A stretch of 64,000 bases of DNA from Candidatus Zhuqueibacterota bacterium (GCA_049322915.1 JBMOPW010000045.1:1-64000), one strand, 5' to 3'. Counted from the stretch's first letter, positions 6,170 to 28,891 are shown. Numbers and translations: made by a program. Notes: a model not told the origin generated them from the letters alone.

Positions 6170-6171
6170 CC

Positions 6172-7323
6172 ATGAAAAACCATATAAAACATTTGTGGAT
6201 GGCGATGGCCACTCTATTGATTATAGCGAATGCTCATTCTGATGCAAAAGTCATAATTAATCATTTTAATTGGAATCCTTCTCATATCGCTATAGAGAAA
6301 TTGGACAAAGTAAGGACATTGAAAATTATGTTCGGACATCAATCGGTTGGCACGAACATAGTTGATGGGCTGACAGCGTTATCTGATTCAAATTCAGTCC
6401 GATATGGCTTGAATATCCTATTTAAGCCGTCTAATTTGACCTCTCCAGCTTTTGGTCACTGGAAAAATGGTGAGAATCAAGATCCACATAGTAAAATTAT
6501 TGCATTCGATGCGAAAATGAGGAGCCAGGTGGGTAGCAACGATACTTGGGCAGACATCCTTGATATTGGTTATTTTAAATTTTGCTATGTCGATCTTAAC
6601 TTATCATCAATAAATACCGATAGCTTATATGAAGATTATGTTGGTAACATGATGAAACTGATAAGTGATTATCCTGAGTGTAAATTCGTTCATGTGACCA
6701 TTCCATTGTCGGCATTGATCTATGGGAGTGATAAAGATCGAAATAAACGACGCCATGAGTTCAACGTAAAAATCAGGAGCCTCGCTGATATAACCGAAGG
6801 TTATCTTTTTGATCTTGCTGATATAGAATCTCATGATGGAAACGGAATTCTACAAACATATGAATTGGATGGGAATGAATACCCAATGATGTGGTACGAT
6901 TCAAGCGACCCTGATAATAACGGATGGAGCTATGATGGCGGACATTTAAACAACAAGGGTAAAGAGCATATCGCACTGGCAATGTGGAGCTTATGGGTCG
7001 CATTGACAGACGATGGTTCATCGGAGGTAAAAAAATCATCGCAAGATAAGCATTTACCCGAGCAAGTTGAACTGTTTGGAAATTATCCGAATCCATTTAA
7101 CACGCAGACGACCTTAATATACAATGTACCAATTCCACAAAAAATAAAAATTGATATTTTCAATTCCCTCGGTCATTACATCACAACGATTGTGGATAAT
7201 GTGCAACATATTGGTTTTTATACCATTAAATTCAATGCCGAAAACCTGAAAAGTGGTGTTTACCTATATAGGATTCAGAATGAATCTTTTCAGCAGACAA
7301 AAAAAATGACATTACTACGATAG
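6172..7323 (+). CDS. SGNH-like hydrolase/acyltransferase domain plus T9SS type A sorting domain
   Basis: Signal peptide; FGHQSVG, FKFCYVD and DGGHLN motifs; C-terminal NYPNPFN...SGVYLY...KKMTLLR. Confidence 0.7.
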   Translation: MKNHIKHLWMAMATLLIIANAHSDAKVIINHFNWNPSHIAIEKLDKVRTLKIMFGHQSVGTNIVDGLTALSDSNSVRYGLNILFKPSNLTSPAFGHWKNGENQDPHSKIIAFDAKMRSQVGSNDTWADILDIGYFKFCYVDLNLSSINTDSLYEDYVGNMMKLISDYPECKFVHVTIPLSALIYGSDKDRNKRRHEFNVKIRSLADITEGYLFDLADIESHDGNGILQTYELDGNEYPMMWYDSSDPDNNGWSYDGGHLNNKGKEHIALAMWSLWVALTDDGSSEVKKSSQDKHLPEQVELFGNYPNPFNTQTTLIYNVPIPQKIKIDIFNSLGHYITTIVDNVQHIGFYTIKFNAENLKSGVYLYRIQNESFQQTKKMTLLR

Positions 7324-7369
7324 TAACGGTGATATTTGGATTCTATTATAAAAAAATTAGTAATGCAAC

Positions 7370-8020
7370 TTGGGAGATTGCTTGAAAATAGAAGATATTA
7401 TTTATAAAGTCTATTCTATTAAAAATAATAGATTGAGAAAATTCCTTCAAAAACAGATTAAACGAAGAGAAGGAGGTGAATTTTATTCACTAACACTGAG
7501 AAGGATTTTTAAGAATTATCATAAAATTGAAATTGGCTTATATAGTCACGGGGGATGTTTCATTCCAAGTCAAATGGATAAGTATACACAAATAGGCCGC
7601 TATTGTTCAATTGCGACGAGTGTGAGAATAATGAATCGGAATCACCCGATGAACTTTAAGTCGATGCATGCATTTTTTTTTAATCCTGCATTGAAGATTT
7701 GTGAGCATGATCCTATAGAGTATATATCTTTGACTATTGGGAATGACGTCTGGATAGGGCATAATGCGATTATCATGCCAAATGTCAAGGAAATTGGTCA
7801 TGGTGCTGTGATAGCTGCCGGAGCAGTCGTCAATAAAAATGTACCTCCTTACGCGGTTGTTGTCGGCAATCCTGCTCGTGTCGTCAGATATCGGTTTTCA
7901 GAAAAAGTGATTGATCAACTTCTTGCCTCGAAATGGTGGGACAATTCAATTGAGGAAATTAAGACGAATATCCAGGAATACCTTAACCCCTATGAAGAAA
8001 CAGATCAAGGCGACAACTAA
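7370..8020 (+). CDS. CatB/Vat-related hexapeptide-repeat O-acetyltransferase
   Basis: IGRYCSIA, IGNDVWIG, IGHGAVIAAGAVV, VGNPARVVRYRF and KWWD motifs; start may be TTG at 7382. Confidence 0.9.
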   Translation: MGDCLKIEDIIYKVYSIKNNRLRKFLQKQIKRREGGEFYSLTLRRIFKNYHKIEIGLYSHGGCFIPSQMDKYTQIGRYCSIATSVRIMNRNHPMNFKSMHAFFFNPALKICEHDPIEYISLTIGNDVWIGHNAIIMPNVKEIGHGAVIAAGAVVNKNVPPYAVVVGNPARVVRYRFSEKVIDQLLASKWWDNSIEEIKTNIQEYLNPYEETDQGDN

Positions 8021-8085
8021 TTCAATAGATGATAATTTTATTTCGATAAGTGTAAGAATTGAATTCTATTAATTATGGATGAATT

Positions 8086-9849
8086 ATGAATAAGTTAAAA
8101 TTTATTGTATGTATTGCATATCTCCAATTGCTAATTCCGATTGTCGGTCGAGCGCAATACTCATTGTTACATGAAGAATTCAGCCAACCGAATTTTGCAA
8201 CTCCTTCGAACATAAATCATCACGTGTTAAATTTTTTCCATCATTCGTGTGGTTTAAATTTATTAGAAGATGGTTTAATGGATAGTCTTGAGGGACTTGG
8301 ATATACTTTACATAGTAGAATTATTAGCACGTATGATTATGAAAATACCTATACTGATTATCGACACTGGTACAAGCGATTTCAACGGGAGTTAGGAATT
8401 CCTGTAGGCGACCATTATTATCGGTACGAAGGTCCTGATAAGAATGGAGAACCAGTTATCAGCACTCAAATAGATGATGATTACAGAGATTTTATGCTGA
8501 ATTATTATGATTTCAATGCTGAACGAATGGATATTATCATGTTTAAGCCATGTTACCCAAATTCTGAAATCAACGACTTCGATACACAATTTAACGCGAG
8601 TAGCGATAATAACGGATTTGGACAGGTAGTCAGTGGTACACCATATTCAGATAATGACTATAACAATTATCTGTATTTAAATTCGTCGTCGTCAGTGGAT
8701 GATGAGTATGATGCTGATTACTGGGAAAATGGAGTATGGCAGAAGGAAGCGTCTTCGTTAGCGCAACTGAAATGTGCTTACAGGGGAATGCTCAATATTT
8801 TTGTAAACAACCCAGAAATTCTTTTCATTGCGATGCAAGCCCCACCTTTGGCAGAATTGTCTAATGAAGAATCAGCGAGTTGCAGAGAGTTTGCCCGCTG
8901 GTTACGAGAGGACTGGCTTCATCAATATGATCCTCTGGGAATTGATCAGTTTGAAGATTATCCCTTAAAAAATGTTGTGCCCTTCGAATTCCATAATTCA
9001 GTCGGTTGGACTGGCAATAATCCACTCTTAGATGATGAGTACTTTTGGTTTGTGCAGGGTGGCTTTGCTGATAATACATTGGACACAAACGATTCAGATA
9101 AGATTGGGGAGAATGCATCTGGGAGAGATCATCCAGCTTCATGGCTTAACCAACGAACAGTCTCCATTTTCTGTGGCGGGACGGATATCTTTAGTCAGCA
9201 GTACACCGGCCAGCCGCCGCGAACGTATTATTGTTGGATTAATGCAGTTGTAAACCGATGGGAGATGCAATCCACACCTGTGGAATTGACGAACTTTTCC
9301 GCCAGGATATGGGAAAATTCTGTCATTCTCCAATGGTCCACTCAATCTGAAACCAATAACTATGGCTTTGAAGTGGAACGGGCTACTGATAGGATGAGCT
9401 TTAAAAAAATTGCATTTGTCCCTGGGAATAATACCACAACAAGTCCCAAAGACTACCAGTACGAGGACAACAGTCTGGTGTTTGGAAAGTACTTTTATCG
9501 TCTCAAACAAATTGATTGCACTGGCGAATATAGTTACTCAGCGGTTCTTGATGTTCATCTGGCAATAGCGCGCGGTTTTAAGCTGTACCAAAATTATCCC
9601 AATCCATTTAATGCTTCCACGAGTATCGCTTATGAGCTGCAGGACGCCGGAGATGTTGAATTAACCATTTATAACACAAAGGGGCAGGAGGTCAATCGGT
9701 TACTCCATGGCTATCAACATGCGGGATATCATTCTGCTAAATGGGACGGAACCGATTTTTCAGGCAGCTATGTCCCAACTGGAATTTACTATTGTAAGCT
9801 ACGGGCCAATCACGATTATCAGGTAATTAAACTGTCGTATTTGAAATAA
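8086..9849 (+). CDS. Secreted protein: divergent SGNH-like domain, Ig/FN3-like module and T9SS/FlgD-type C-terminal domain
   Basis: Signal peptide; FFHHSCG, MFKPCYP and DHP motifs; PVELTNF...ETNNYGFEVER module; QNYPNPFN CTD. Confidence 0.65.
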   Translation: MNKLKFIVCIAYLQLLIPIVGRAQYSLLHEEFSQPNFATPSNINHHVLNFFHHSCGLNLLEDGLMDSLEGLGYTLHSRIISTYDYENTYTDYRHWYKRFQRELGIPVGDHYYRYEGPDKNGEPVISTQIDDDYRDFMLNYYDFNAERMDIIMFKPCYPNSEINDFDTQFNASSDNNGFGQVVSGTPYSDNDYNNYLYLNSSSSVDDEYDADYWENGVWQKEASSLAQLKCAYRGMLNIFVNNPEILFIAMQAPPLAELSNEESASCREFARWLREDWLHQYDPLGIDQFEDYPLKNVVPFEFHNSVGWTGNNPLLDDEYFWFVQGGFADNTLDTNDSDKIGENASGRDHPASWLNQRTVSIFCGGTDIFSQQYTGQPPRTYYCWINAVVNRWEMQSTPVELTNFSARIWENSVILQWSTQSETNNYGFEVERATDRMSFKKIAFVPGNNTTTSPKDYQYEDNSLVFGKYFYRLKQIDCTGEYSYSAVLDVHLAIARGFKLYQNYPNPFNASTSIAYELQDAGDVELTIYNTKGQEVNRLLHGYQHAGYHSAKWDGTDFSGSYVPTGIYYCKLRANHDYQVIKLSYLK

Positions 9850-9965
9850 ATAGTGTTGTTTATCTGGTTTATGATTTTCTGTTTAAATGCATCTGAAAAT
9901 TTTTTTCAAGTGGACTTAGTTGGATGGGCAAGGAATTTCTGTAATTTGCTCAGGAAGCGCGTATT

Positions 9966-11540
9966 GTGCAGATAAATAATTTCCTAGAAATTACCGCGCA
10001 AAATTTCCCTGATAAAAAAGCTATCTGGCATAATAACCAGTGGCTCACTTATTCAGAAATTAATTCACTATCGAACAAGGTCGGTAATTATTTGAAGGGC
10101 TGTGGCCTGGAACGCGGGGATCGGGTTGCCATCCTCCTCGAGAATAGTTTCGACTATATCATTTCTTACTATGCAATTTTAAAAATTGGGGCCATTACCG
10201 TTGCTCTAAATACTGAATCAACGACGGACTCATTGACTTACTTATTGAATGATTCAGGCGCCAGGGCAATTATATCGAATAAAAAATTCACTAAAAAGCT
10301 GATCCCTGCTTTAGCTAATTTGATAAATCTGAGATGGGCTATCATTGATCAGCCTGATCCTGCAGAATATCAAAAGCTAAATTTTTGCACTACCATCGCT
10401 TTAAAGAAAATTTATACATCTGGCAATGACGCTCATCCCAATGTGCGGTGCATCGATACCGATATCGCGTCTATTGTGTACACTTCAGGCAGCACAGGAA
10501 AACCAAAAGGCGCCACGTTAACTCATTTCAATATTGTGAGCAACACCCATTCGATCGTTGAGTATCTCCAGTTGAACGCGCACGATCGAATTATGGTTGT
10601 CCTGCCATTTTATTATATTTATGGGAAATCGCTGCTCAATACGCATTTCTGTGTTGGCGGATCCGTCGTCATTGATAACAGATTTCTCTATCCCAATGTC
10701 GTCCTCGAAACCATGAAGCAGATGGAGGTCACTGGTTTCTCCGGAGTGCCTTCTACGTTCATGATTCTGTTGAACAGGTCTTCTGTGCGCACTTACACAT
10801 TTAGTTCGCTGCGCTATTTGACACAAGCCGGTGGCGCGATGGCGCCGGTTGTTCAAAAGGAAGTTGCTAAAGTTTTTTCGCCTGCCAAGTTATTCATCAT
10901 GTACGGCGCCACCGAAGCTTCAGCGCGGCTCTCTTATTTAGATCCTGAAATGCTGCCCCAAAAGTGGGGATCCATCGGAAAAGCCATTCCCAATGTTGAT
11001 CTTTTCATCGCTGATGAAAATGGACGTCCGCTACCGCCCGGGGAGGTCGGCGAGATCGTTGCCAGAGGATCGAATTTGATGGTGGGATACTGGAACGATC
11101 CGGAAGAAACGGCACGCGTGATAAAAAATGGTATGTACTTTACCGGCGATCTGGGTCGGATGGATGAAGATGGCTATCTCTTCGTCGTGGGGCGAAAACG
11201 AGACATGATAAAAGTCGGCGGCGAGCGAGTGAGCGCCAAAGAAATCGAAGAAGCGATATTGGAAATCCCCGAAGTTCATGAAGTGGCAGTCATTGGCGTG
11301 GAAGAAGAAGTATTGGGTGAGGCGATTAAAGCGATCATTGTTTTCAATGATGAAATGGAACCGCTGCATGAAAAGGCAATTCGCGCATTCCTGTCAAAGA
11401 AATTACCTCTGGTGAAAATACCAAAATTCATCGAGTTTGTCAAAACCCTTCCAAAGAACGAGTCCGGAAAAATTCTAAAGACCGTTCTGAGAGAGCAACA
11501 TCGTATTGAAACTTTTCAAGATGAAAGGGTACCGGAATGA
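9966..11540 (+). CDS. Class I adenylate-forming enzyme (acyl-CoA/acyl-ACP ligase)
   Basis: YTSGSTGKPKG, MYGATE, FTGDLG and LPKNESGK motifs; GTG start. Confidence 0.93.
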   Translation: MQINNFLEITAQNFPDKKAIWHNNQWLTYSEINSLSNKVGNYLKGCGLERGDRVAILLENSFDYIISYYAILKIGAITVALNTESTTDSLTYLLNDSGARAIISNKKFTKKLIPALANLINLRWAIIDQPDPAEYQKLNFCTTIALKKIYTSGNDAHPNVRCIDTDIASIVYTSGSTGKPKGATLTHFNIVSNTHSIVEYLQLNAHDRIMVVLPFYYIYGKSLLNTHFCVGGSVVIDNRFLYPNVVLETMKQMEVTGFSGVPSTFMILLNRSSVRTYTFSSLRYLTQAGGAMAPVVQKEVAKVFSPAKLFIMYGATEASARLSYLDPEMLPQKWGSIGKAIPNVDLFIADENGRPLPPGEVGEIVARGSNLMVGYWNDPEETARVIKNGMYFTGDLGRMDEDGYLFVVGRKRDMIKVGGERVSAKEIEEAILEIPEVHEVAVIGVEEEVLGEAIKAIIVFNDEMEPLHEKAIRAFLSKKLPLVKIPKFIEFVKTLPKNESGKILKTVLREQHRIETFQDERVPE

Positions 11541-12349
11541 GAACACTAGTTTTGATCATATTCGTTGTGGCGCTTAGTTGCACGAATGATATGGAGAAAG
11601 ACCACATGAAACTTCCTTTGGAATCGATTCAAATGAGCGATTCAGCAATCGACTCGTTGGCCTCCAAACGCATTTATTTTGGTCACATGTCCGTTGGGTA
11701 CAACATGATGAAGGGCGTCGAAAATGTCATCAAATCGGATGCACGACTCAGCGCCATCCGTGTGATAGAGCTTGCTGAAAATGATACGATTTCAGCGCCG
11801 GGATTTTATCACGGGAAAAACGGGAAGAATTCGTTCCCGGATACAAAGTGCGATGCGTTTAAAAATCTGTTATTTAAAAATGATTTTGCCAAGAATCTGG
11901 ATATCGCGTTTTTTAAATTTTGCTATGTCGATTTAAAGGATAATTCCGATGTGCAAAAAATTTTCAATTATTATGTGTCTACTGTGGAGGGAGTGAAATC
12001 AGCATTCCCTCACCTGAAAATTGTTCACGTCACTGTGCCGTTGAAATCCCATTGCTGGGGAATGAAAGAAAAAGTGAAACGGTTGTTCCAGACAGATGTA
12101 TCAAATATCAAGCGGAACGAATTTAATACCTTGCTTCTGGAGAAGTACAGCGGACATGAACCGGTGTTTGATCTGGCAGGAATTGAATCGACCTGTGAGG
12201 ACGGCAGCCGGACGTCATTTAAACACAATGGCAATGTCTATTATTCACTTAATGATCGGTACACCTACGATGGCGGGCATTTGAACGCGGAAGGATCGCT
12301 CTTAGCAGGGCGGGCGCTCGTGCAACTTTTGTCTGAAATTTCCCTGTAA
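11537..12349 (+). CDS. SGNH-like lipoprotein, paralog of 6172..7323
   Basis: Lipobox-like ALSC; FGHMSVG, FKFCYVD, VFDLAGIES and YDGGHLN motifs; ATGA overlap with the ligase stop. Confidence 0.7.
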   Translation: MRTLVLIIFVVALSCTNDMEKDHMKLPLESIQMSDSAIDSLASKRIYFGHMSVGYNMMKGVENVIKSDARLSAIRVIELAENDTISAPGFYHGKNGKNSFPDTKCDAFKNLLFKNDFAKNLDIAFFKFCYVDLKDNSDVQKIFNYYVSTVEGVKSAFPHLKIVHVTVPLKSHCWGMKEKVKRLFQTDVSNIKRNEFNTLLLEKYSGHEPVFDLAGIESTCEDGSRTSFKHNGNVYYSLNDRYTYDGGHLNAEGSLLAGRALVQLLSEISL

Positions 12350-12388
12350 CCCCTGGTTATAACTGATGAATGCGAGGAAGGAATTACA

Positions 12389-12640
12389 ATGCAACATTTG
12401 CCAGTAATCAAAGAGTTTATCATAGAAAATTTCCTGTTCGGCGATGGTGAAAATCTTCAGGACGATGCATCGTTTATGGATAACGGCATCATCGACTCCA
12501 CAGGCATCCTGGAGTTGATCACATTTCTCGAAGAGAAGTTTGGAATTAGCGTCAAGGACGATGAACTCGTTCCTGACAACCTGGACAGCCTGACGAAGGT
12601 CTCCGGCTATCTCGAAAGAAAGCTGCAGGCCGGACAGTGA
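12389..12640 (+). CDS. Acyl carrier protein
   Basis: 83 aa acidic protein with GIIDSTG phosphopantetheine-Ser motif; GAGG/AAGG upstream. Confidence 0.92.
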   Translation: MQHLPVIKEFIIENFLFGDGENLQDDASFMDNGIIDSTGILELITFLEEKFGISVKDDELVPDNLDSLTKVSGYLERKLQAGQ

Positions 12641-12863
12641 TGTCCTTTCCAACACCTGAAATCCAATCAATAAAACGGAATTCGAATGAAGCGAGTCGAT
12701 TGATGGTTTTCAGAAATTGTGCGACAACGACTCTCCCGGCAGACGATCAATTTTCCCACCCTCTCATTGCGAATGCTCAGCGACATGGTTGAATCTCCGT
12801 TTAATAACTTCATTCAGTCCTATTTTAACTCGATCATTTTCAACAATCACAACGACAACACGT

Positions 12864-14840
12864 ATGTGCGGAATCGCGGGTAAATACTCATTCTCTTCAG
12901 CGAAACACATTTCGCCTCATGACATTGGCAAAATGGTTCAGATCATGAACTATCGTGGTCCGGATGAAACCGGCTGGTACGTGGACGATGTCGTTGGATT
13001 GGGACACGCGCGCCTCAGCATCATCGATCTGGCCGGGGGCGTGCAGCCCATTCACAACGAAGACGAGACCATGTGGATTGTGTACAATGGCGAGATTTTC
13101 AACTATCCTGAATTGAAGGCTGACCTGGAAAAGAAAGGCCATCGTTTTTATACGACAACGGACACTGAGGTGCTGTTGCACCTCTATGAGCAAAAGGGTG
13201 TCGATTGCCTGAATGATCTGAACGGCCAGTTCGCTCTGGCGATTTGGGATCGTTCGCGCCGCGAACTTTTTCTGGCCCGCGATCGCGTCGGCATTCGACC
13301 GCTGTTCTTTACGCTGCAAAATGATGTCCTGACATTTGCTTCGGAAATCAAAGCGATTTTCACTGACAGCGCCATCCCACGCGAAATCGATGCATCGGCG
13401 TTGGATGAAATATTCACGTTCTGGACGAACCTGCCGGGCAGGACAGTGTTCAAAAATATTCACGAGCTCCGGCCCGGACATTACGCGACAATTAAAAACA
13501 ACCATTTTCAGATTGGCAAGTTCTGGGATATTCCTTTTGCGCCTCCACAGGATCAATTGAATTTATCAGTCGGCCAGTACGCCGAGCACATCAAGGATTT
13601 GCTGACCGATGCCATCCGAATTCGGCTGCGAGCGGACGTGCCTGTGGGATGCTATCTCAGCGGCGGACTGGATTCGTCTGGGGTCACTTCGCTGGTGGTG
13701 AAAAACTTCGATAATAACGTCCGCACATTTGGCATTCGGTTCGAGGAAAAAGCGTTCGACGAAGGCCAGCATCAAAATCTGATGGTGTCTTATCTTCGCA
13801 CCGATCACACTGAAATTGTAGCCACCAATCAATTCATCGGCGAAGCGCTGCCGCAAGTCCTCTGGCATTGTGAAAAACCGCTGCTGCGCACCGGACCGGT
13901 ACCGTTGTTTTTATTATCGAAAGCCGTTCACGACAGCCACTATAAAGTTGTACTCACCGGCGAAGGCGCGGACGAGGTGTTCGGCGGATACAATATCTTT
14001 CGGGAAGCCAAGGTTCGGAATTTTTGGGCAAAGCAACCCGATTCCAAATTCAGGGGAAAGCTGATTGGAAAACTGTATCCGTACATCTTCAATGATCCGC
14101 GGCTCTGGCAAATGAAGCAGGTCTTTTTCGCGACCGGATTGGATCGTCATCATGACCCATTTTTCTCTCACCTCATTCGCTGGCAGACCACGAGTAAAAT
14201 TAAGACGTTCTTTGCAGCGGAGGTTCATGCTGCCCAGAACCTCGACGCCTTCAACGGAGCGCTCACATCCATGTTGCCGGCCTCCTTCTCGCAGTGGGAT
14301 CCTCTCGCCAAAGCGCAGTATCTGGAAATGACCCTATTTTTGAGCAATTACCTGCTCTCATCCCAGGGCGACCGCGTGGCCATGGCCCATTCGGTGGAAA
14401 TCCGACTGCCTTTTCTTGACTATCGAATCATCGAGTTCATGGGACAGGTGCCGTCGTCTCTGAAAATCAGAGGAATGAACGAGAAGTATTTATTGAAGAA
14501 AGCATTTCAGGGAATTTTGCCGGAAGCGATTGTCCGTCGCCCCAAGCATCCCTATCGCGCGCCGATTGGACAGAGCTTTTTTAATAAAGATACATCGGCG
14601 TTCACGATGGATGTGCTCTCGGAACGCGAATTATTACAATCCGGGCTGTTCAATCCTGTCAAAGTAGCGGGTTTAATCCGCAAATTTCAGCAGCAGAGCG
14701 AAGCCAGCGAGACCGATAACATGGCGATCATGGGAATTTTGTCGGCGCAGTTGATCTTCCATCAATTCATCCGGGCCTTTCCCGGGGACAGCATCCGACC
14801 GAAACAGCCAACTGTCGCGTTTGACTTTCGATCCGTATGA
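12864..14840 (+). CDS. asnB: Asparagine synthase (glutamine-hydrolysing) family amidotransferase
   Basis: Starts MCGIAG at ATG 12864 (Ntn Cys), not 12717; RGPD, LGHARLSIID, LSGGLDS, GEGADE and EIRLPFLD motifs. Confidence 0.93.
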   Translation: MCGIAGKYSFSSAKHISPHDIGKMVQIMNYRGPDETGWYVDDVVGLGHARLSIIDLAGGVQPIHNEDETMWIVYNGEIFNYPELKADLEKKGHRFYTTTDTEVLLHLYEQKGVDCLNDLNGQFALAIWDRSRRELFLARDRVGIRPLFFTLQNDVLTFASEIKAIFTDSAIPREIDASALDEIFTFWTNLPGRTVFKNIHELRPGHYATIKNNHFQIGKFWDIPFAPPQDQLNLSVGQYAEHIKDLLTDAIRIRLRADVPVGCYLSGGLDSSGVTSLVVKNFDNNVRTFGIRFEEKAFDEGQHQNLMVSYLRTDHTEIVATNQFIGEALPQVLWHCEKPLLRTGPVPLFLLSKAVHDSHYKVVLTGEGADEVFGGYNIFREAKVRNFWAKQPDSKFRGKLIGKLYPYIFNDPRLWQMKQVFFATGLDRHHDPFFSHLIRWQTTSKIKTFFAAEVHAAQNLDAFNGALTSMLPASFSQWDPLAKAQYLEMTLFLSNYLLSSQGDRVAMAHSVEIRLPFLDYRIIEFMGQVPSSLKIRGMNEKYLLKKAFQGILPEAIVRRPKHPYRAPIGQSFFNKDTSAFTMDVLSERELLQSGLFNPVKVAGLIRKFQQQSEASETDNMAIMGILSAQLIFHQFIRAFPGDSIRPKQPTVAFDFRSV

Positions 14841-14939
14841 GTCTGCCGGTGGCGTCCCCGTGGCAATTTCGCTGATTACTCGGAGCATTCGACCACATTA
14901 AAAATCGTCCCATCATTCACTCAATTATTGCATGAAACC

Positions 14940-17195
14940 ATGAAAAAAATTCTGCCCGTTTTAATCCTGTTTCTTCTGGCCGGGGTGAATTCGGGAAGAT
15001 GTCAGGCGCCGGGCGTTATCTCCGGAACGGTCACCGATGAACATGGCCAACCCCTGCCTAACGCTACCATCATCATCCTGGGCACGCAGTGGGGTGCTGC
15101 TTCGGACAGCGAAGGCGTCTATCGGATACCGAATCTGGCCGCGGGAGTGTACAGACTGAAATGTATGAGCATGGGCTACGAATCAGTCATCAAGGACGCT
15201 GTGTCGGTGCGCGCCGGTGAGGTCACCACGGTGAATATTCAATTGATCGAAAAAGCGATTGAGATGGAGGAAGTCATCGTAACCCCGGGTGATTTTTCAA
15301 TCGCGCAGCAGCAAACCGCCAAACGGCAGGTGATTGATAAAGAGAAGATCATCGATGTGCCGGCGACGTTGAACGACATTTGCCGCGTGTTGCAGATCAT
15401 GCCCGGCATAACGTTCTCTGACGATTACAGCGCGCATTTTCATGTGCGCGGCGGGAAGCAGAACGAGAACCTCATTCTCCTCGATGGCATGGAGATATTC
15501 GACCCGTATCACCTCAAACATATTGGCGGCGCTGTCGGCGTGATGAATATGGAATTGACCGAGAATGTGTCGGTATTGACCGGCGGGTTTCCTGCCCGGT
15601 ACGGGGATAAATTATCTTCAGTGGTGGCAGTGGAAAATCGGGCTGGCGATAAAGAGAGGTTCAGTGGTAATATCGGCGGCGGCGGCACCGGATTTTCATT
15701 TTTGCTGGAAGGACCCATGCCGTACGGCAGTTGGATTCTTTCTGCGCGAAAAAGTTTTTTGAAAGAAGCGGCTGAGTTCCTGAATCCCACGGATTACACT
15801 TTTTCACCATCCTTTTATGACGTGCAGGGAAAACTTTCATTGACCGGCTCCGGCAGGAATCAATTCACCTACAATTTTCTTTATTCAAAAGATAACTCGT
15901 ATCTGGAAAAATGGCGCCGGGACTCAGAACTGAACTCGGATTACGGCAACAGCTATCACGGCATCGTCTGGCGAAAGATCATCAGTCCCAGATTTCTGTG
16001 GGAAATGATCCTCTCCCGCGGTGAGAATTTCTGGGACAATAAAATCGGGGATGATAAACGGGAGAAATTGAACCTAGCCGAGAATGTGTTCACGTGGAAT
16101 TTCACAACGGAGCCGCTGCGCCGGCATCATGTTGAAGCCGGATTGACCTACAAATTCATCAGCTACGATTACGAACTGGATGCGCCCGAAATTTCCACGG
16201 ACCTGCAGGATTTCGAGGAGTTGGTTCAGTCGGCTTATGGCGATGTTAAAATTAATCCCAGGACCTACAAGTTGTCCGGGTTCCTGCAGGACAAATTCCC
16301 CATCTATCAATCCCTGTTCGCCAATGTGGGGCTGCGTTACGATTATTTCGAGTACAACGAAGATCAACATGTTTCACCGCGGCTGGGCCTGGCTTATAAA
16401 GTGACCGAGAAAACCATATTCCGGGGCGCCTGGGGCCATTTTTACCAATCCCCGGTGTACACAGAATTGACTGATACAAAGGGCGCAGAACACAACCCGA
16501 CATCGGAGAAGTCGGTCCACTATGTCGCCGGCGTTGAACATCACTTCTCGGACAAAATCTCTATTCGGGTGGAGGCCTATCAAAAGACATTGGAGCAGAT
16601 GATCGGGCATTATTATGAAATTATTGAGGAAGAGCCGGAGATCCGATACGGGAACCCCTATGATGGTTTGGCAAAGGGCGTTGAGTTTTTCTTTAATGGA
16701 CAATTCACAAAACGCTGGTCTCTCTGGGGCGCCTATGCTTTCTCAAAGACCGAGATCGAACGGCTGCTGATCGACTGGCAGGAACTATCTATTGAAACGC
16801 AGACAGTCCCCCGATTTACTGACCAGCCGCACAATCTCTCCCTGTTCACCAGCGTGCTGTTTCCGCGAGCCTGGGAACTGAATATCAAATGGCGATACCT
16901 GTCCGGAATCCCCTACACGCCGGAGTACCCGGTCTGGAACAATGGCAAAGCCAATTGGGATAGCGGGGAGCCGTATTCGGCTCGCTATCCTGCGTACCAT
17001 CGATTGGATGTCCGAATTGGCAAGCGATTCACGTTCAATCGATTCGAACTGGCTACTTTTCTCGAAATAAAAAATCTGTACAATAATGACAATGTGTTGC
17101 TGTACGATTTCGAAATTGAAGATAACCAGCATGTGAAAAAAGTCTATCACACGCTGCCATTTCTGCCAACCATAGAATTTACGTTAACTTTTTAA
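14940..17195 (+). CDS. TonB-dependent receptor with N-terminal carboxypeptidase-regulatory-like domain
   Basis: Signal peptide; ISGTVTDEHGQPL domain; plug motifs VRGG...NLILLDG and GGFPARYGDKLSSV; C-terminal Phe. Confidence 0.9.
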   Translation: MKKILPVLILFLLAGVNSGRCQAPGVISGTVTDEHGQPLPNATIIILGTQWGAASDSEGVYRIPNLAAGVYRLKCMSMGYESVIKDAVSVRAGEVTTVNIQLIEKAIEMEEVIVTPGDFSIAQQQTAKRQVIDKEKIIDVPATLNDICRVLQIMPGITFSDDYSAHFHVRGGKQNENLILLDGMEIFDPYHLKHIGGAVGVMNMELTENVSVLTGGFPARYGDKLSSVVAVENRAGDKERFSGNIGGGGTGFSFLLEGPMPYGSWILSARKSFLKEAAEFLNPTDYTFSPSFYDVQGKLSLTGSGRNQFTYNFLYSKDNSYLEKWRRDSELNSDYGNSYHGIVWRKIISPRFLWEMILSRGENFWDNKIGDDKREKLNLAENVFTWNFTTEPLRRHHVEAGLTYKFISYDYELDAPEISTDLQDFEELVQSAYGDVKINPRTYKLSGFLQDKFPIYQSLFANVGLRYDYFEYNEDQHVSPRLGLAYKVTEKTIFRGAWGHFYQSPVYTELTDTKGAEHNPTSEKSVHYVAGVEHHFSDKISIRVEAYQKTLEQMIGHYYEIIEEEPEIRYGNPYDGLAKGVEFFFNGQFTKRWSLWGAYAFSKTEIERLLIDWQELSIETQTVPRFTDQPHNLSLFTSVLFPRAWELNIKWRYLSGIPYTPEYPVWNNGKANWDSGEPYSARYPAYHRLDVRIGKRFTFNRFELATFLEIKNLYNNDNVLLYDFEIEDNQHVKKVYHTLPFLPTIEFTLTF

Positions 17196-17424
17196 TCCCT
17201 CGGCAGTACCAGGGACGAAAAATAATTCTACCACCTTCGCCAACCAACCAAACACGAACAGGGCGAAAGACAACACGTTTATTTCATTCATAAAAATACT
17301 CTGCTGATTTCTCATCTCTCAGATTGCAGTGTAGTACGTTTCGACTCCGCGGATCTCTGATGCGCTGCCTCCTAAAAGTTATTCACAATTAATTGTCCGC
17401 TATCCAGTGGGCAGGAGGTGTAAC

Positions 17425-19062
17425 ATGAAAAGTTTTATCAAAATTCTAAGTACGAGCAGTTGCGTCATTTTGGTGTCGCTGTTATTTTCAGGCGTAGTCT
17501 CCGCTCAGTTCGTCATCAACGCCAATGATTTTCCATCGACGCCCGGGATTTGCATCATCACCGAAGACGATACGGTGAATGGCATCGGCATTGATGTCGG
17601 CTTGCCCGGCGCAAACCGTGTCTGGCGCTTCGACCAGCCATATCCAAGCACTCTCAGCCGTCAGGTGTTGATGGCCCCGAAAGATACCCCATTTTCAGCT
17701 CAATTCCCGGACGCCAACGTGGCCGTTCGTTACGACGGCAAACTGGGACACATCGTCCACAGCTACTATTTCGACGATATTTCCGGGGAGATTTATGGCT
17801 ATCAACAATTGACGCCAGGCGAACTGCGGATTCAGGGCTTTGGTGTGGATTCTGCCCTCGCCCGCTATAATGAATACGTGGCTGATGTGAGGGGGATAGT
17901 GGATATTGAACCCAATGTGTTGATGCATTCTTTTCCCCTGAGGTACGGCAAAACCTGGCAGAGCGTCTCGGATTTTAGTGTGGAAGCAGATACAACCCTG
18001 TTTGGAATTCCCATCACCTTGTCAGCGGACATCAAGGACAATGTCTCCTCCGTAGTCGATGGTTGGGGAACCATCTATTTACCGAATGCAAGTTATCGGA
18101 CGTTACGAGTGAAATCCTACATCTCATTGCAGGAAGATTTATTTCTCAATGGCGTTCAGATTCGTTCGAAGAAAACCCGTACCATAAATTATTACTGGAT
18201 CGCTCAGCATTATGGCATCGTGGCCCGCGTCATCAGCTATTCCAATGAACCTGACGACGGATTCCTCTTGGCCAAACAAGTGTCGCGGATTCATCTGTTC
18301 AATCCGAAAATTGAGCTGCGGCTCGATTCCTATAGCGGTCACCGCGGCGATATTTTTGAAATACCGATCCACATCAACAAAGTCACCGATCTTTCCATCT
18401 CATCTGTTCAGTTCAAAATTGGTTTTGATACAGGCAAGCTCATTCCGATGGAGGTGATCACACGGGGCGCGCTCACTGAAAAATGGCGCGCGCCGGAATT
18501 GATCGCTACGACGACCGGGGTGCAGTTCAAACTCAGCGGCGATGAGCCCCTGGCCGGCGAGGGCGTGTTATGTTACCTCAAAATGCAGGCCAATCCCAAT
18601 GCGACCGATTACGGGCTGACGGCCATCTCCTTCGATGAAGTAAAAATTGACAAAAGCGGCCCCATGATTGTGCCGTTTCCGGGTCGATTTGTCCTGTTGC
18701 CCGGAAATGTGCTGACCCGGGAAGAACAAATTGCCTTCGAACAACTCGTCGCCGGCTCCCTGGCAGAGTTCCGATTGATGCAAAATTACCCCAACCCGTT
18801 CAATTCTCTCACCACGATCGGATACCAATTGCCATCGAATTCCACAGTCACTCTTCAGATTTTTGACATGCAGGGCCGATTGATTCACACATTGGCGCAG
18901 GGCACGCAGCCAGCCGGACAGCATTTTTTGAATTGGGATGGGCGCGATGGTTTTGCCAATCTCGTGGCTTCCGGGACGTATTATTACCGCATCGATGTTG
19001 CACCCAATGAAACGACACAACAAACACTTTCATTCGTGAAGAAGCTCATTCTACTAAAGTGA
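17425..19062 (+). CDS. Secreted protein: unknown N-domain, cohesin-like domain and T9SS/FlgD-type CTD
   Basis: AGGAGG RBS; signal peptide; GDIFEIPIHI...FKIGFD...PLAGEGVLCYLK cohesin-like region; QNYPNPFN. Confidence 0.75.
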   Translation: MKSFIKILSTSSCVILVSLLFSGVVSAQFVINANDFPSTPGICIITEDDTVNGIGIDVGLPGANRVWRFDQPYPSTLSRQVLMAPKDTPFSAQFPDANVAVRYDGKLGHIVHSYYFDDISGEIYGYQQLTPGELRIQGFGVDSALARYNEYVADVRGIVDIEPNVLMHSFPLRYGKTWQSVSDFSVEADTTLFGIPITLSADIKDNVSSVVDGWGTIYLPNASYRTLRVKSYISLQEDLFLNGVQIRSKKTRTINYYWIAQHYGIVARVISYSNEPDDGFLLAKQVSRIHLFNPKIELRLDSYSGHRGDIFEIPIHINKVTDLSISSVQFKIGFDTGKLIPMEVITRGALTEKWRAPELIATTTGVQFKLSGDEPLAGEGVLCYLKMQANPNATDYGLTAISFDEVKIDKSGPMIVPFPGRFVLLPGNVLTREEQIAFEQLVAGSLAEFRLMQNYPNPFNSLTTIGYQLPSNSTVTLQIFDMQGRLIHTLAQGTQPAGQHFLNWDGRDGFANLVASGTYYYRIDVAPNETTQQTLSFVKKLILLK

Positions 19063-19070
19063 GGATTGCA

Positions 19071-21566
19071 ATGAAGAATCAACGTCACACATTTTTGATT
19101 TGCAGCATGCTCGCGTTGAACCTTGTTCTGTTCAATGGAGATCTGTTGTCGCAAATTACCATCAACAGCGACGATTATCCGTCGCAGATCGGAACCTATA
19201 TTGTCACGGAAGACGATACTGCAGATGTGGTACATGTCAATGTGGGACTGCCGGGGGAAAATCAAATCTGGTACATTCAGCAAGAAATTCCCGGCATTCT
19301 GACCCGGCAACTGGTGGTGGATAAAGCCAATACGCCCTATCTTGCTGATTTTCCTGATGCGAATCTGGTGACCCGATATGCCGGAGAACTTGGTTTTCTG
19401 GTTCATAGCTATTACTTCGATGATGTGGATGGGCTGTTTTATTCGTATCAGAAAATAAACGCAGACAGCCTCATCATCGCTGGGATTGGCGTTGATTCTT
19501 CCCAGGCAGAGTATGAAGATGTCTACCTGAATTTTAAAGGGCCAGTCGATTTGGAGCCAGACCTGCTGCAATTCGCCTTCCCATTGGTGTATGAAAAATG
19601 GTGGGAAACGGCTTCGCACAGCACTGTCGAAGTGGATACTATGCTGTACGGCATTTGGACGAATCTGCGGACTGAAGTGCGCGACAGCATTTACAACGTC
19701 GTGGATGGCTGGGGCACGGTGGTGTTGCCGCAAGCCAGCTTCGCGTGTCTGCGCGTTAAAAGCTTTATCTTATTAAGTGAAATGATGTACACCAATGGTG
19801 TGCTGTTTCGCGAACGGCATACCCGAACAATTAACTACACCTGGGTCACTGAAGAATCGGGAATCGTCGCCCGAATCATGAGTCACTCGGACGAACCGGA
19901 TGAAAATTTCACCGAGGCGAAACAGATTTCCCGGTTGCACATGTTCAATCCGAGCGTGAATGTCTCGCTCGCCGACACAATTGCCGCGCCGGGGGAATCG
20001 GTCATAATGCCGGTTCGCGTCTCCTCCATGACGGATCTGGATATCGTGAAAGCGCAGATGGATGTGAGCTTTGAAAAAGGAATTATCCAATCGCTGGAGA
20101 TTGTCACGGAAGGGACACTGACGGCTTTGTGGCAGTCACCGATGTTGTCCGGGACATCCAGCGGCGTTACTGTCTCACTGCACGGCGACGCGCCATTGAC
20201 CGGCCAGGGGATCCTTTTTTACCTGAAATTGGTCGTTGCTGAAGGCGCCGGCGATTTGGCGCAGACAGCAATTGGAATCGACAATCTGCTCGTTGAGCAC
20301 GATGGGCCTGTTTTCACTATCCAGCCGGGACGGCTCACCGTGGCGCACACGTATGATATTTCCGGCGCAGTCAAATATTATTCCGGCGACAGTCCGATTG
20401 ACCGCTCTACCGTGTATTTGAATGAAAAAAGCACGGTCACAGGCGCCGATGGCGGATACGAATTTTCAGTCCTCCCCAGAGGGAATTATTCCTTGAAGCC
20501 CATGAAAGATGGCGATTTGAAAAACAGCATATCCGCGTTCGATGCATCCCTGATTTTACGAGCTAACGTTGGCGCTGTTGACTTGCTCCCGTACCAAAAA
20601 ATTGCCGCTGATGTTTCCGGCAACGGCAGCGTCACTGCCTATGACGCTTCCATGATCCTGAGATACTCAGTTGGCCTTATTTCTGAATTTACAGTCGGTG
20701 ATGATTGGCGGTTCGTACCTTCGGATTTCGCCATTGATCAGACAAACTGGAATGCGACACCGCGGCAGATCGACTATTCGCCATTGGCTGAGACAAAGAT
20801 CGCTCAGAATTTCACGGGGATTGTTTACGGCGATGTTTCCGGAACCTGGTCTGCGAATGGCGCGAAGATGAATGCCCTTTATCGGCCGTACACGGGCATC
20901 GGATCGCTTCGCTTCGGTGAACTCACGGAGTCCAAAGACAAAATCACTGTACCGTTGGTGATAACTTCAGATTGCGAAATCCTCGCCGCGAGCTTTGAAA
21001 TCAGAACGCCGGGTCAGCCGCTTGAATTCGCGAATCTGGCGCTGAATGCCGAAACGCCAGCGATGCTGATGGAGTTCTCGGAGACGGATGGCGTCATTCA
21101 AGTGGCGCTTGCAAGTCCTGAAAAAATGAATGAAATTGAAAATCTGCTCAGCCTCGAGTTCGTGAAAAAGCATGAAACGCCGGGCCATGTGCCGGAGGTG
21201 AAGATCACCAACATCCTCCTGAACGGGGGATTGGTTCAAACACAGCATTCCGATGAACTTTCACTGTCTGACCAGACTCAGCCGCTGAAATTCGAACTGC
21301 TTCAGAATTATCCCAATCCCTTCAACTCCAGCACCTGCATCCGCTATAGTTTGCAGGACAGAAGGTATGTTCGAATTTCAATTTTCAATGCTCTGGGGCA
21401 GACCATCAGCGTGATGGACGAGGGCTATCAGAACGCCGGGACGCATGAAGTTCGCTGGGCAGGGAAAAATTCCCGGGGGAACGATGTCCCATCAGGCATC
21501 TATTTTTATGAACTGGAATCTTTTGGCGCGGATCGGGAAATTCGAAAGATGGTATTGATTCGATAG
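19071..21566 (+). CDS. Secreted protein: paralogous N-domain, cohesin, Ig-like, dockerin-like, second cohesin-like domain and T9SS CTD
   Basis: N-domain clearly homologous to the previous gene; PGESVIMPV...PLTGQGILFYLK; duplicated ISAFDASLILR and ADVSGNGSVTAYDASMILR; QNYPNPFN. Confidence 0.78.
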   Translation: MKNQRHTFLICSMLALNLVLFNGDLLSQITINSDDYPSQIGTYIVTEDDTADVVHVNVGLPGENQIWYIQQEIPGILTRQLVVDKANTPYLADFPDANLVTRYAGELGFLVHSYYFDDVDGLFYSYQKINADSLIIAGIGVDSSQAEYEDVYLNFKGPVDLEPDLLQFAFPLVYEKWWETASHSTVEVDTMLYGIWTNLRTEVRDSIYNVVDGWGTVVLPQASFACLRVKSFILLSEMMYTNGVLFRERHTRTINYTWVTEESGIVARIMSHSDEPDENFTEAKQISRLHMFNPSVNVSLADTIAAPGESVIMPVRVSSMTDLDIVKAQMDVSFEKGIIQSLEIVTEGTLTALWQSPMLSGTSSGVTVSLHGDAPLTGQGILFYLKLVVAEGAGDLAQTAIGIDNLLVEHDGPVFTIQPGRLTVAHTYDISGAVKYYSGDSPIDRSTVYLNEKSTVTGADGGYEFSVLPRGNYSLKPMKDGDLKNSISAFDASLILRANVGAVDLLPYQKIAADVSGNGSVTAYDASMILRYSVGLISEFTVGDDWRFVPSDFAIDQTNWNATPRQIDYSPLAETKIAQNFTGIVYGDVSGTWSANGAKMNALYRPYTGIGSLRFGELTESKDKITVPLVITSDCEILAASFEIRTPGQPLEFANLALNAETPAMLMEFSETDGVIQVALASPEKMNEIENLLSLEFVKKHETPGHVPEVKITNILLNGGLVQTQHSDELSLSDQTQPLKFELLQNYPNPFNSSTCIRYSLQDRRYVRISIFNALGQTISVMDEGYQNAGTHEVRWAGKNSRGNDVPSGIYFYELESFGADREIRKMVLIR

Positions 21567-21609
21567 ACATTCACTCAGTGGTGCTCATTTCAAGAACAGG
21601 ATAGTCATT

Positions 21610-22566
21610 ATGCCATTCTCAAAAGAGTCCGTGCTCCTGGATATCGCTGTGGAGACGGAGAAGATTGTAACAAAGCTTCGCGCCGACGTCGCGCACACGT
21701 TGAAGAAACGGGGCGCTGTTGTCGGAATAAGTGGGGGAATCGATTCCTCGGTCGTGTTAGCGCTGTGCGCGAAGGCGTTCGGCCCACAGAAAGTGTTCGG
21801 CGTGATGATGCCGGAAAAGGATTCCAGCTCGGATAGCTTCATCCTGGCAAAATCGCTCGTCAGAAAATTCAGCGTCGATTATGTGCTGGAAGATATGACC
21901 CCGGCTCTGTACGGTTTCGGAACTTACGCCAGAAGAGATGAAGCGATCCGGCAGATTTTCCCGGAATATGATGTCAGCTACAAAGCAAAGATCGTTCTGC
22001 CGAAGAATATACTCGAAAAAGACACGCTGAATGTCTATCATCTCACGATCATTGCGCCAAACGGGGAAGAGAAGACAAAGCGAATCCCGATAAAGGAGTA
22101 CCTGCAAATCGTCGCTGCTTCCAATTTTAAACAGAGAAGCCGCATGAGCATGTTGTACTATCACGCGGAACGGCTCAATTATGCCGTGATCGGGACGGGC
22201 AATAAAAATGAGCATGAGATGGGTTTCTTCGTCAAATACGGTGACGGCGGCGCTGATGTCAAACCAATCGCCCATCTCTTCAAAAGTCAGGTGTTTCAGT
22301 TAGCGGCGTTTCTGGGCGTGCCTGATGAGATTCAGAGCCGAACTCCGACCACGGATACCTACAGCGCAGAACAAACTCAGGAAGAGTTCTTTTTCAAATT
22401 GCCTTTCGAAATACTCGATGCCATCTGGTTCGGCTGGGAAAAAGGCCACTCTCCGGAAGAGATCGCCGCAGGCCTGAATTTATCGACAGCGCAAGTGCAA
22501 TTTGTGATCAATGACATTAAGCGGAAAATCGCTGCTACGGAATACCTGAGAATGATGCCGATTTAA
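21610..22566 (+). CDS. nadE: NH3-dependent NAD(+) synthase family protein (polysaccharide-locus paralog)
   Basis: SGGIDSS PP-loop, NFKQRSRM, GTGNKNE, GFFVKYGDG and KSQV motifs. Confidence 0.85.
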   Translation: MPFSKESVLLDIAVETEKIVTKLRADVAHTLKKRGAVVGISGGIDSSVVLALCAKAFGPQKVFGVMMPEKDSSSDSFILAKSLVRKFSVDYVLEDMTPALYGFGTYARRDEAIRQIFPEYDVSYKAKIVLPKNILEKDTLNVYHLTIIAPNGEEKTKRIPIKEYLQIVAASNFKQRSRMSMLYYHAERLNYAVIGTGNKNEHEMGFFVKYGDGGADVKPIAHLFKSQVFQLAAFLGVPDEIQSRTPTTDTYSAEQTQEEFFFKLPFEILDAIWFGWEKGHSPEEIAAGLNLSTAQVQFVINDIKRKIAATEYLRMMPI

Positions 22567-22620: not shown

Positions 22621-22654
22621 AAAACCTCAGTCCATGAAAGATTGAGGTTTTTTT
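22621..22654. terminator. Bidirectional intrinsic terminator between convergent genes
   Basis: AAAACCTCAGTC-catgaaa-GATTGAGGTTTT followed by further T. Confidence 0.8.

Positions 22655-28818: not shown

Positions 28819-28891
<73 letters not shown>

Follow-up and report, generated by a model that had tools for sequence, protein, structure and literature searches.

A four-gene ligase and amidotransferase cassette and an exported SGNH-fold protein family in a putative surface-glycan locus of a Candidatus Zhuqueibacterota bacterium

Background

What does a bacterium make with an adenylating ligase, an acyl carrier protein (ACP), an AsnB-type amidotransferase and a NadE-like enzyme whose genes lie among those of exported proteins in a putative surface-glycan locus? 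The question is raised by a run of genes at positions 6172-22566 of a 64,000-nucleotide stretch of DNA from a Candidatus Zhuqueibacterota bacterium (GCA_049322915.1, JBMOPW010000045.1:1-64000). The whole stretch, hereafter the window, opens a contig of 180 kb (C45), of which it covers the first 64 kb; the genome comprises 6.25 Mb and is 96.3% complete. An earlier note, made from the sequence of the window, had proposed that an activated acyl or aminoacyl group is loaded on the ACP, possibly amidated, and passed to the glycan by SGNH-like proteins in the manner of the Dlt system, with type IX secretion system (T9SS) cargo taking the place of PEP-CTERM proteins.

The ligase, ACP, AsnB and NadE-like genes, here called the cassette, are carried by hundreds of bacterial species, mostly in exopolysaccharide loci, and one of them is routinely annotated as NAD synthase. 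The cassette is already known as an uncharacterised operon; new are an SGNH-fold protein family which tracks it, a second, T9SS-tagged copy of that family, and a genomic context of either exosortase or T9SS genes. Its chemistry, if solved, would add a new class of glycan substituent and might bear on the anchoring of both PEP-CTERM and T9SS cargo. We read the window as part of a Wzx-dependent surface-glycan locus with two layers, a cytoplasmic cassette that would form amides and exported SGNH enzymes that would edit the glycan, and we give this reading as a whole an even chance of being right. The identity of the parts within it is highly probable; the chemistry, predicted from sequence, is put forward tentatively.

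Results and discussion

The ligase, carrier and amidotransferase genes

Gene identities were assigned by Pfam and NCBIfam profile scans of the window proteins. The scans recover the order ligase, SGNH lipoprotein, ACP, AsnB, outer-membrane barrel, two cargo genes, NadE-like enzyme, and thereby confirm, with the corrections given below, what the earlier note had observed: its ligase, lipoprotein, ACP, AsnB, NadE paralog, TonB receptor and four proteins with a T9SS C-terminal domain were all found in place on the plus strand, which also carries all substantial open reading frames (ORFs) from 146 to 22566. The run further holds a hexapeptide acyltransferase gene (7370-8020) that had gone unmentioned.

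The ligase (9966-11540, plus strand, as are the other genes of the run) is an adenylating enzyme of the ANL family (AMP-binding, 292.4 bits) with intact nucleotide-binding and catalytic lysine motifs; its best NCBIfam models are of the fatty-acyl-CoA-ligase type. It is the counterpart of SMb20650 of Sinorhizobium meliloti, with 34% identity (E 2e-101) to this pSymB-encoded ligase. The dedicated ACP of 83 amino acids (12389-12640; PP-binding, 21.8 bits, cut-off 20.8) contains the serine site IIDSTG and shares 56% identity, that site included, with the pSymB carrier SMb20651. The AsnB-type glutamine amidotransferase (12864-14840; TIGR01536, 506.5 bits, cut-off 267.1) has an N-terminal cysteine and an SGGLDSS PP-loop, its start being the Met-Cys at 12864 rather than the TTG of the ORF at 12717, and is 44% identical to the asnB product of pSymB.

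The fourth protein (21610-22566), a PP-loop enzyme with the motif SGGIDSS and counterpart of the pSymB nadE product, would be named NAD(+) synthase by the NCBI model (NF002048, 448.4 bits, cut-off 313). It shows about 50% identity to the Sinorhizobium pSymB copies, and 86 of the 246 plasmid records matched in a tblastn search were from Sinorhizobium. Since contig C14 yields another NAD_synthase match (261.6 bits), located in an open frame of 586 amino acids, the window gene is a paralog; this second copy, and the association of the window gene with ligase and ACP genes, argue for a substrate other than that used in NAD synthesis.

All four alignments are nearly full length, and the four genes are clear counterparts, at 34-56% identity, of those in the uncharacterised S. 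meliloti pSymB operon asnB-SMb20651-SMb20650-nadE, in whose annotated stretch the genes for AsnB, the acyl carrier protein, a class I adenylate-forming enzyme and NadE are contiguous and stand alone. The two sets share the small ACP with its IIDSTG site and a nadE-like gene annotated as NAD(+) synthase. According to the passages of PMC7232532 that deal with these genes, SMb20650 is cotranscribed with SMb20651, co-expression of both in E. coli yielded acylated SMb20651 (citing Ramos-Vega 2009), and SMb20650 cannot replace FadD.

In contrast to pSymB, the cassette of the window is split by the SGNH lipoprotein gene, an outer-membrane barrel gene and two T9SS cargo genes, and lies within a Wzx locus. 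In a relative of the same family (G011), the order SGNH-ACP-AsnB-529-amino-acid ORF-NadE occupies less than 6 kb with nothing between, the 529-residue product being taken as the ligase from its size and position. A cassette of this kind can therefore do without the outer-membrane barrel gene and the pair of cohesin cargo genes that part AsnB from NadE in the window; on this comparison they lie outside its core. The cassette ligase of a Nitrospira-labelled metagenome-assembled genome (MAG; L051:3301-6432) is a protein of 1043 amino acids with two AMP-binding domains; a fusion of the ligase to a partner enzyme was considered for it and rejected in favour of a tandem double ligase.

An exported SGNH-fold protein family

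The gene for the lipoprotein (11537-12349, 270 amino acids) starts with an ATG that overlaps the TGA of the ligase gene by four bases (ATGA), as the translational coupling claimed for the pair implies. Its product has an N-terminal hydrophobic stretch up to Cys15, a residue that at least 90% of the 26 homologues in the alignment share. The database gene call starts further downstream and predicts 247 amino acids; because the lipobox cysteine is conserved, the longer form is favoured. No Pfam or NCBIfam model, Lipase_GDSL and DltD included, matched the protein at E values up to 0.01. A word-indexed search returned 1148 relatives at E values up to 0.001, and among the 120 relatives listed most were nameless or "hypothetical protein", and one had a Pfam domain (Lipase_GDSL).

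All 26 aligned sequences have Ser52, as part of the motif F-G-H-x-S-V-G, together with Asp245 and His248 of the motif D-G-G-H-L-N; by position and block definition we take Ser52 to represent SGNH block I and the Asp-x-x-His pair block V. The AlphaFold2 (AF2) model of the lipoprotein reached a pLDDT (predicted local distance difference test) of 88.2 and a pTM (predicted template-modelling score) of 0.83, and Foldseek matched it to SGNH hydrolases at probability 1.00. In VIA-align, Z scores were 15.5 to the Bacteroides acylhydrolase 4ppy_B (root-mean-square deviation 3.3 A, 181 residues), 15.0 to the sialate O-acetylesterase 7pzg and 13.8 to the C-terminal domain of OatA, 5ufy; the acylhydrolase and sialate O-acetylesterase hits span Z 15.0-15.5, 2.9-3.3 A and 176-181 residues, and two designed scaffolds scored 15.8-15.9. 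The nearest solved structures are carbohydrate O-acetylesterases.

From the motifs, the lipobox and these model comparisons, we are confident that the lipoprotein is an exported protein of predicted SGNH fold, from a family to which, for this protein, no Pfam or NCBIfam model corresponds. It shares the fold, the invariant serine and the Asp-x-x-His with SGNH O-acetylesterases and O-acetyltransferases (7pzg/6njc, acetyl xylan esterases, PatB 7tjb, OatA 5ufy), but sequence identity to these enzymes is 9-19%, block I reads G-H-x-S-V-G instead of G-D-S-L, a Lipase_GDSL match is missing, and in place of the usual architectures there is either a lipobox or a T9SS sorting domain.

The T9SS sorting domain belongs to the second of the only two family members found in the genome (6172-7323). 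This paralog combines a catalytic-type SGNH-family domain (residues 32-281) with a sorting domain (residues 305-379; TIGR04183, 39.4 bits, cut-off 23; Por_Secre_tail, 38.9 bits). It aligns to the family profile in hhalign at a probability of 99.95 (E 1.1e-38, 235 columns) and retains the motifs FGHQSVG, FKFCYVD and DGGHLN. A T9SS-type sorting domain was present in 28 of its 120 listed homologues, and a PEP-CTERM domain in none of them.

Association of the SGNH family with the cassette

A pattern scan with one genome per species yielded 376 loci with a relative of the SGNH protein, and the best 80 were examined. The retrieved flanks were searched for cassette genes on the basis of our own ORF calling, with phmmer thresholds of 300 bits for the ligase, 450 for AsnB, 60 for the ACP and 220 for NadE. 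All 80 loci together contained 39 with a ligase, 36 with an ACP, 22 with an AsnB and 20 with a NadE paralog gene; at least two of these genes occurred in 37, all four in 12, and none in 37, many of the last being short contigs. For the 40 loci with at least 5 kb on both sides the figures were 23 (ligase), 22 (ACP), 14 (AsnB) and 12 (NadE paralog), with at least two genes in 24, all four in 8 and none in 15. The co-occurrence by which the earlier note had wished its proposal to be judged is thus present.

Gene order varies among the loci, whose records are labelled Desulfobacterota, Nitrospirota, Acidobacteriota, Myxococcota, Cyanobacteria, Spirochaetota, Bacteroidota and archaea, and recurrence of the set in shuffled orders in many phyla is taken as more than chance. 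The four-base overlap of ligase and SGNH genes was also seen in a MAG of the same genus (L002, recorded as "uncultured Cytophagia bacterium") and in Syntrophorhabdus aromaticivorans (L028). Cultured carriers of cassette and SGNH gene include Nostoc sp. CHAB 5836 (L052), Pyxidicoccus caerfyrddinensis CA032A (L063) and S. aromaticivorans UI (L028).

Among 40 relatives of the genome, the SGNH family was found in six and the NadE paralog (E values up to 1e-40) in 13, all six included; both genes lie on one contig in two relatives (G001 and G011). These counts are descriptive, kin not being independent. Because a gene of this family is missing beside the pSymB cassette and from 7 of the 13 NadE-paralog carriers among the relatives, the SGNH gene is a frequent, non-obligate accessory of the cassette.

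A two-layer reading of the locus

The preferred reading can be spelled out as follows. The ligase would adenylate a carboxylic acid and load it on the ACP, as reported for the S. meliloti pair, and the two PP-loop enzymes, AsnB and the NadE-like protein, may amidate further carboxylates of the bound or precursor acid to give an amide-bearing acyl-ACP. A soluble acyltransferase would then take the acyl group with its amide off the ACP and attach it to a sugar of the lipid-linked repeat unit, ahead of the flipping step. The local candidate for cytoplasmic acyl transfer is the left-handed beta-helix protein encoded at 7370-8020 (Hexapep, 36.5 bits), which best matches NCBIfam models of the Vat/CatB type, all under cut-off; candidates of this sort across the 80 loci were hexapeptide transferases (33 loci, within 10 kb), FemAB-like proteins (14) and DegT aminotransferases (14). 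The exported SGNH lipoprotein and its T9SS paralog, judged by fold, Ser/Asp/His residues and export signals, may be O-acyl esterases or transacylases which edit the acyl pattern of the finished glycan.

Several points weigh against this reading. The substrate, product and acceptor chemistry of the cassette are what we infer. No SGNH, hexapeptide transferase or glycan gene adjoins the pSymB cassette; as that cassette stands alone, its product need not be a glycan substituent. The two layers are separable: no cassette gene was counted in 15 of the 40 well-flanked SGNH loci, and no SGNH-family member is present in 7 of the 13 relatives that carry the NadE paralog. The four-base overlap between ligase and SGNH genes, with its recurrence in L002 and L028, suggests matched production and would fit a closer partnership than later editing. 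In L003, L006 and L061 the SGNH or ligase gene has an MBOAT gene no more than three genes away, as would be expected of a Dlt-like route. Finally, a predicted fold cannot separate an esterase from a transferase.

Possibly two functions in one operon

Alternatively, two unrelated functions could share the operon: the SGNH proteins would be general exopolysaccharide O-acetyl esterases, paired with an acetyl-CoA-dependent hexapeptide O-acetyltransferase, and the cassette would make a separate product such as a small molecule, a lipid head group or a substituent of another polymer. The immediate neighbours of the SGNH gene, evaluated in 76 loci, fit this idea, as the hexapeptide transferase is the commonest identified one (13, as against 7 for the ligase and 6 for the ACP), and so do the 15 cassette-free loci, the solitary pSymB cassette and the resemblance of the lipoprotein model to carbohydrate O-acetylesterases. 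We nevertheless regard it as unlikely. At least two cassette genes in 24 of the 40 well-flanked loci, and the NadE paralog in six of six SGNH-positive relatives, are in our judgement far above what a general esterase would lead one to expect, and the coupled start of ligase and SGNH genes recurs in distant lineages.

A possible Dlt-like route, and a second carrier module on contig C39

Like the window, the Dlt system (DltA, DltC, DltB, DltD) combines, in a surface-polymer locus, the gene of an exported SGNH-fold protein with those of an adenylating enzyme and a small carrier. By analogy with teichoic acid modification, an acyl or aminoacyl group bound to the ACP would cross the membrane through an MBOAT-type channel and be placed on the glycan by the SGNH proteins. 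Translational coupling of ligase and SGNH genes here and in L002 and L028, and the strong tendency of SGNH-family genes to occur together with ligase and ACP genes, are in keeping with such a route, which had been the proposal of the earlier note. An MBOAT gene was found within 10 kb in 5 of the 80 loci. In L003 it is the direct neighbour of the SGNH gene and in L061 that of the ligase gene; in L006 its distance from the scored SGNH copy is three genes. A gene for an acyltransferase of the AT3 type adjoins the SGNH gene in L012 and L045. L006 (6005-10864, from a Syntrophales-labelled MAG) comprises, in this order, an MBOAT gene, three tandem SGNH-family paralogs, an epimerase and an exosortase gene, with no cassette gene within 10 kb.

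The topology provides a clear argument against a simple Dlt-type scheme: the SGNH proteins are exported, one by its lipobox and the other by its T9SS domain, and the ACP is cytoplasmic. The copy sent by the T9SS to the cell surface would moreover be distant from any membrane channel. A Pfam scan found no MBOAT in the window, as had been noted before, nor is an AT3 gene present there; one or the other occurs within 10 kb in 6 of the 80 loci, and neither in 74. No MBOAT was found in G001, a genome of the same genus with the same cassette order and 94% completeness, and three of the six SGNH-positive relatives have an MBOAT gene, always on a different contig.

The individual proteins also differ from their Dlt counterparts. 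The ligase is of the acyl-CoA-synthetase type, and DltA models were outside its 25 best, so that they score less than 249 bits where 476 or more would be needed. The carrier stays under the DltC cut-offs (NF003464, 24.8 bits against 68; TIGR01688, 16.3 against 52.35), no DltD match was obtained at E values up to 0.01, and the two amidotransferases have no counterpart in the Dlt system. Amino-acid-activating adenylating enzymes have an Asp-bearing motif at a position where the window ligase reads LPFYYIYG. Support for a Dlt-like transfer from ACP to glycan by way of the SGNH proteins is thus weak, and we consider such a route improbable.

The single MBOAT match of the genome was obtained on contig C39. 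It is DltB-like (TIGR04091, 175.7 bits, under the cut-off of 375) and stands, in a module at C39:19599-26711, between a FemAB-like enzyme fused to a PP-binding carrier domain and a GDSL-like protein of 431 amino acids. The latter was tried as a member of the SGNH family and rejected (E 0.19). Beside this group lie a convergent gene for a pyridoxal-phosphate-dependent decarboxylase (TIGR03099-like, 362 bits) and a second ligase gene (TIGR03098-like, 423.3 bits), whose product also matches an amino-acid adenylation model. With its own carrier domain, ligase and GDSL-like neighbour, the set is a second, self-sufficient carrier module and forms a fuller Dlt-like set than that of the window, which speaks against an assignment of this MBOAT to the window cassette.

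In favour of such an assignment, C39 and the window probably belong to one glycan locus, of which each would hold a half. The C39 module lies near the Wza and Wzc genes, with an IMPDH gene in between. Downstream, on the plus strand and at a G+C content of 0.33-0.40, C39 carries genes for Wza, Wzc, a priming transferase, glycosyltransferases and a pyruvyl transferase; its tail (C39:33000-46523) also holds a WbpB-like oxidoreductase and a hexapeptide transferase gene, and the contig stops in a truncated transposase gene. C45 starts at a G+C content of 0.33 with the Wzx gene. Of nine ORFs upstream of the ligase gene on a single contig of G001, four best match genes of the C39 tail and three those of the C45 head; since this relative keeps both sets on one contig, C39 and C45 are probably halves of one locus, split at repeats. 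The join is drawn from composition, gene content and synteny; no terminal overlap between C39 and C45 was found, and both ends are repeated elsewhere in the genome. The head of the window (1-150) is a repeat, further copies of which stand where C44 starts and where C8 ends. Contig C8 (3068 bases) consists mostly of short dispersed repeats, each about 60-310 bases long and present in dozens of copies across the genome, and several contig ends stop in such repeats.

Exosortase and T9SS contexts

From the 80 loci, 1148 ORFs were retained after overlap filtering and clustered, and representatives were scanned with Pfam. EpsH was found in 19 loci, EpsI (DUF3485) in 16, a DUF3473 deacetylase in 16, and FemAB-like and DegT aminotransferase genes in 14 each. 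At least 21 loci contain EpsH or EpsI, 9 contain T9SS sorting-domain proteins, and none contains both. An exosortase gene stands directly beside the SGNH gene in six loci (L048, L050, L051, L056, L072 and L075), and fused EpsH-EpsI genes occur in L050 and L051. The association with exosortase/PEP-CTERM loci to which the earlier note had referred is therefore real in other phyla, where both the SGNH family and the cassette are present in such loci.

In the present genome no match to Exosortase_EpsH was found, at 96.3% completeness, and a genome-wide search for PEP-CTERM domains gave no match, with a positive control that was equally silent. Two PorU matches (868.7 and 818.5 bits, cut-off 420) answer, at the scale of the genome, the suggestion that por genes be sought in the flanks; these sortase genes lie at C7:386485-394032, on the same strand and about 1 kb apart. 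The lipoprotein form of the SGNH family beside exosortase genes elsewhere, and the T9SS sorting domain here, are evidence that the family changes its export route with the sorting system of the host. The mutual exclusion of exosortase and T9SS genes may simply follow phylogeny.

The SGNH-family loci resemble XrtA/PEP-CTERM loci in two respects: those elsewhere carry EpsH, EpsI, DUF3473 deacetylase and FemAB-like genes, and models of the XrtA/PEP-CTERM accessory genes (TIGR03098 ligase, TIGR03108 amidotransferase, TIGR03099 decarboxylase, TIGR03019 FemAB-like protein) provide the second-best NCBIfam matches of the window ligase (TIGR03098, 416.4 bits, under the cut-off of 592.35) and AsnB (TIGR03108, 451.2 bits, under 816.9). 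They differ in that the present genome has a T9SS and no exosortase that we could find, and in that the better match to the decarboxylase/ligase pair is on C39, outside the window.

The second system for comparison is the Wbp/Vim pathway, described in the consulted parts of Veith et al. 2020 (PMC7468200) as making the amidated, aminoacylated linking sugar of T9SS cargo in Porphyromonas gingivalis. There the synthesis of the glucuronamide in this sugar is ascribed, as a proposal, to a homologue of AsnB, VimA is matched to the PEP-CTERM-associated FemAB family, and the parallel between Wbp/Vim and PEP-CTERM loci is drawn by the authors themselves. Both cases involve a T9SS organism, an AsnB-type amidotransferase gene near wzx, and deacetylase and N-acyl-transfer genes in the glycan locus; by contrast, an ACP, a ligase and a NadE-like enzyme are not described for the Wbp/Vim pathway in those parts of the paper. 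Our literature search, which covered few subscription journals, returned no paper linking exosortase loci with an SGNH protein and none describing the full cassette in a polysaccharide locus, and Haft 2006 (PMC1569441) makes no mention of an acyl carrier, ligase, amidotransferase, asparagine, decarboxylase or NAD.

From these comparisons one might suppose that cassette and SGNH enzymes tailor the glycan residue to which cargo is attached by exosortase in most phyla and by PorU here, and that a single glycan chemistry underlies PEP-CTERM and T9SS anchoring, with the SGNH enzyme unmasking or transferring an acyl group at the cell surface. Each of these suppositions is a long shot: the Wbp/Vim parallels, the exosortase genes adjoining SGNH genes, the separation of exosortase and T9SS loci, an SGNH paralog that is itself T9SS cargo and the dense cluster of sorting domains in the window would be in line with them, but that separation may merely track phylogeny, relatives of the cohesin cargo with PEP-CTERM domains were not found (0 of 13), the compact G011 cassette is without the cargo block, the S. 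meliloti cassette is apart from any sorting genes in the pSymB stretch shown, and the attachment chemistry has to be assumed.

Sorting-domain cargo and the outer-membrane barrel

Of the 190 sorting-domain sites of the genome, six fall within the window's first 25 kb; only 6 of 1111 sliding 25-kb windows of the genome reach this number, and the clustering is likewise taken as more than chance. The four proteins that had been described as bearing a T9SS C-terminal domain all exceed the TIGR04183 cut-off of 23 bits, with 39.4 (6172-7323, the SGNH paralog), 28.1 (8086-9849), 37.1 (17407-19062) and 26.1 bits (19059-21566).

The protein encoded at 17407-19062 is lineage-specific cargo with a cohesin domain (36.1 bits); that encoded at 19059-21566 is its paralog (43% identity across 427 residues) and has cohesin and dockerin domains by Pfam. 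For the N-terminal part of the former, a search of 5.8 billion proteins gave only 13 relatives, 11 with T9SS-type domains and none with PEP-CTERM. The idea that T9SS cargo replaces PEP-CTERM proteins stands only as a change of context, given these relatives and the absence from the G011 cassette of the cargo block, by which the cassette of the window is split.

The N-terminal domain of the cargo protein encoded at 8086-9849 belongs to a rare family, with about six relatives among 1.84 billion representatives; the remaining rows listed align to the C-terminal region. Residues 21-399 have a paralog on C14 (66% identity). An AF2 model of the domain from a seven-row alignment reached a pLDDT of 41.3. 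The atlas feature score of 0.86 to clusters combining SGNH/GDSL and sorting domains serves as a lead only. hhalign comparison with the SGNH family gave E 0.12 for the single sequence and E 0.018 for profiles, and the motifs H-H-S-x-G, D-I-I-M-F-K-P-C-Y and D-H-P echo those of the family; the domain is possibly a very distant SGNH-like one.

The TonB-dependent-receptor-like outer-membrane barrel (14928-17195), with CarboxypepD_reg, Plug and barrel domains, recurs after the cassette in L002, L004 and L005 and is absent from the compact cassette of G011. At 22685-24511 on the minus strand, two small T9SS sorting-domain proteins (212 and 300 amino acids, one with an fn3 domain) are encoded by genes convergent on the end of the run; over about 190-200 residues each, their C-terminal parts are 32.6% (212 amino acids) and 43.8% (300 amino acids) identical to that of the protein encoded at 8086-9849.

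Further features of the window

Upstream of the run, a Wzx-type flippase is encoded at 146-1666 (Polysacc_synt_3, 206.7 bits; 10 hydrophobic segments), followed by a CE4 polysaccharide deacetylase at 1769-2659 (Polysacc_deac_1, 58.6 bits) and a polytopic membrane protein at 2685-4076. The earlier assignment to a Wzx/Wzy locus holds for Wzx. As to Wzy, the polytopic protein, with seven hydrophobic segments and homologues in four related loci, gave no Pfam or NCBIfam match and is no more than a candidate polymerase. The next gene (4154-6169) encodes a protein of 671 amino acids with an N-terminal hydrophobic leader, one C-terminal hydrophobic segment and a weak DUF2334 match (16.6 bits, under cut-off); a relationship to the SGNH family was considered for it and rejected (E 0.27).

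The G+C content is 0.32-0.39 across the first 10 kb or so of the window and about 0.5 beyond, with the boundary near the ligase gene; low values such as those of positions 1-10000 are typical for the variable, exchanged portion of glycan loci. A promoter scan, with 51 sites against 33.2 expected, was uninformative, and Rfam and tRNA scans had no match within 6172-22566. The co-oriented run ends in a terminator-like hairpin on the plus strand at 22621-22651, with a 12-pair stem followed by a T-run (TTTTATTT).

Farther downstream, all on the minus strand, the window contains a gene for a 1223-amino-acid protein with an alpha-amylase catalytic domain (25037-28708), a tRNA-Phe gene with the anticodon GAA (28818-28891), and a bacterial class A RNase P RNA gene (45019-45365, 312 bits).

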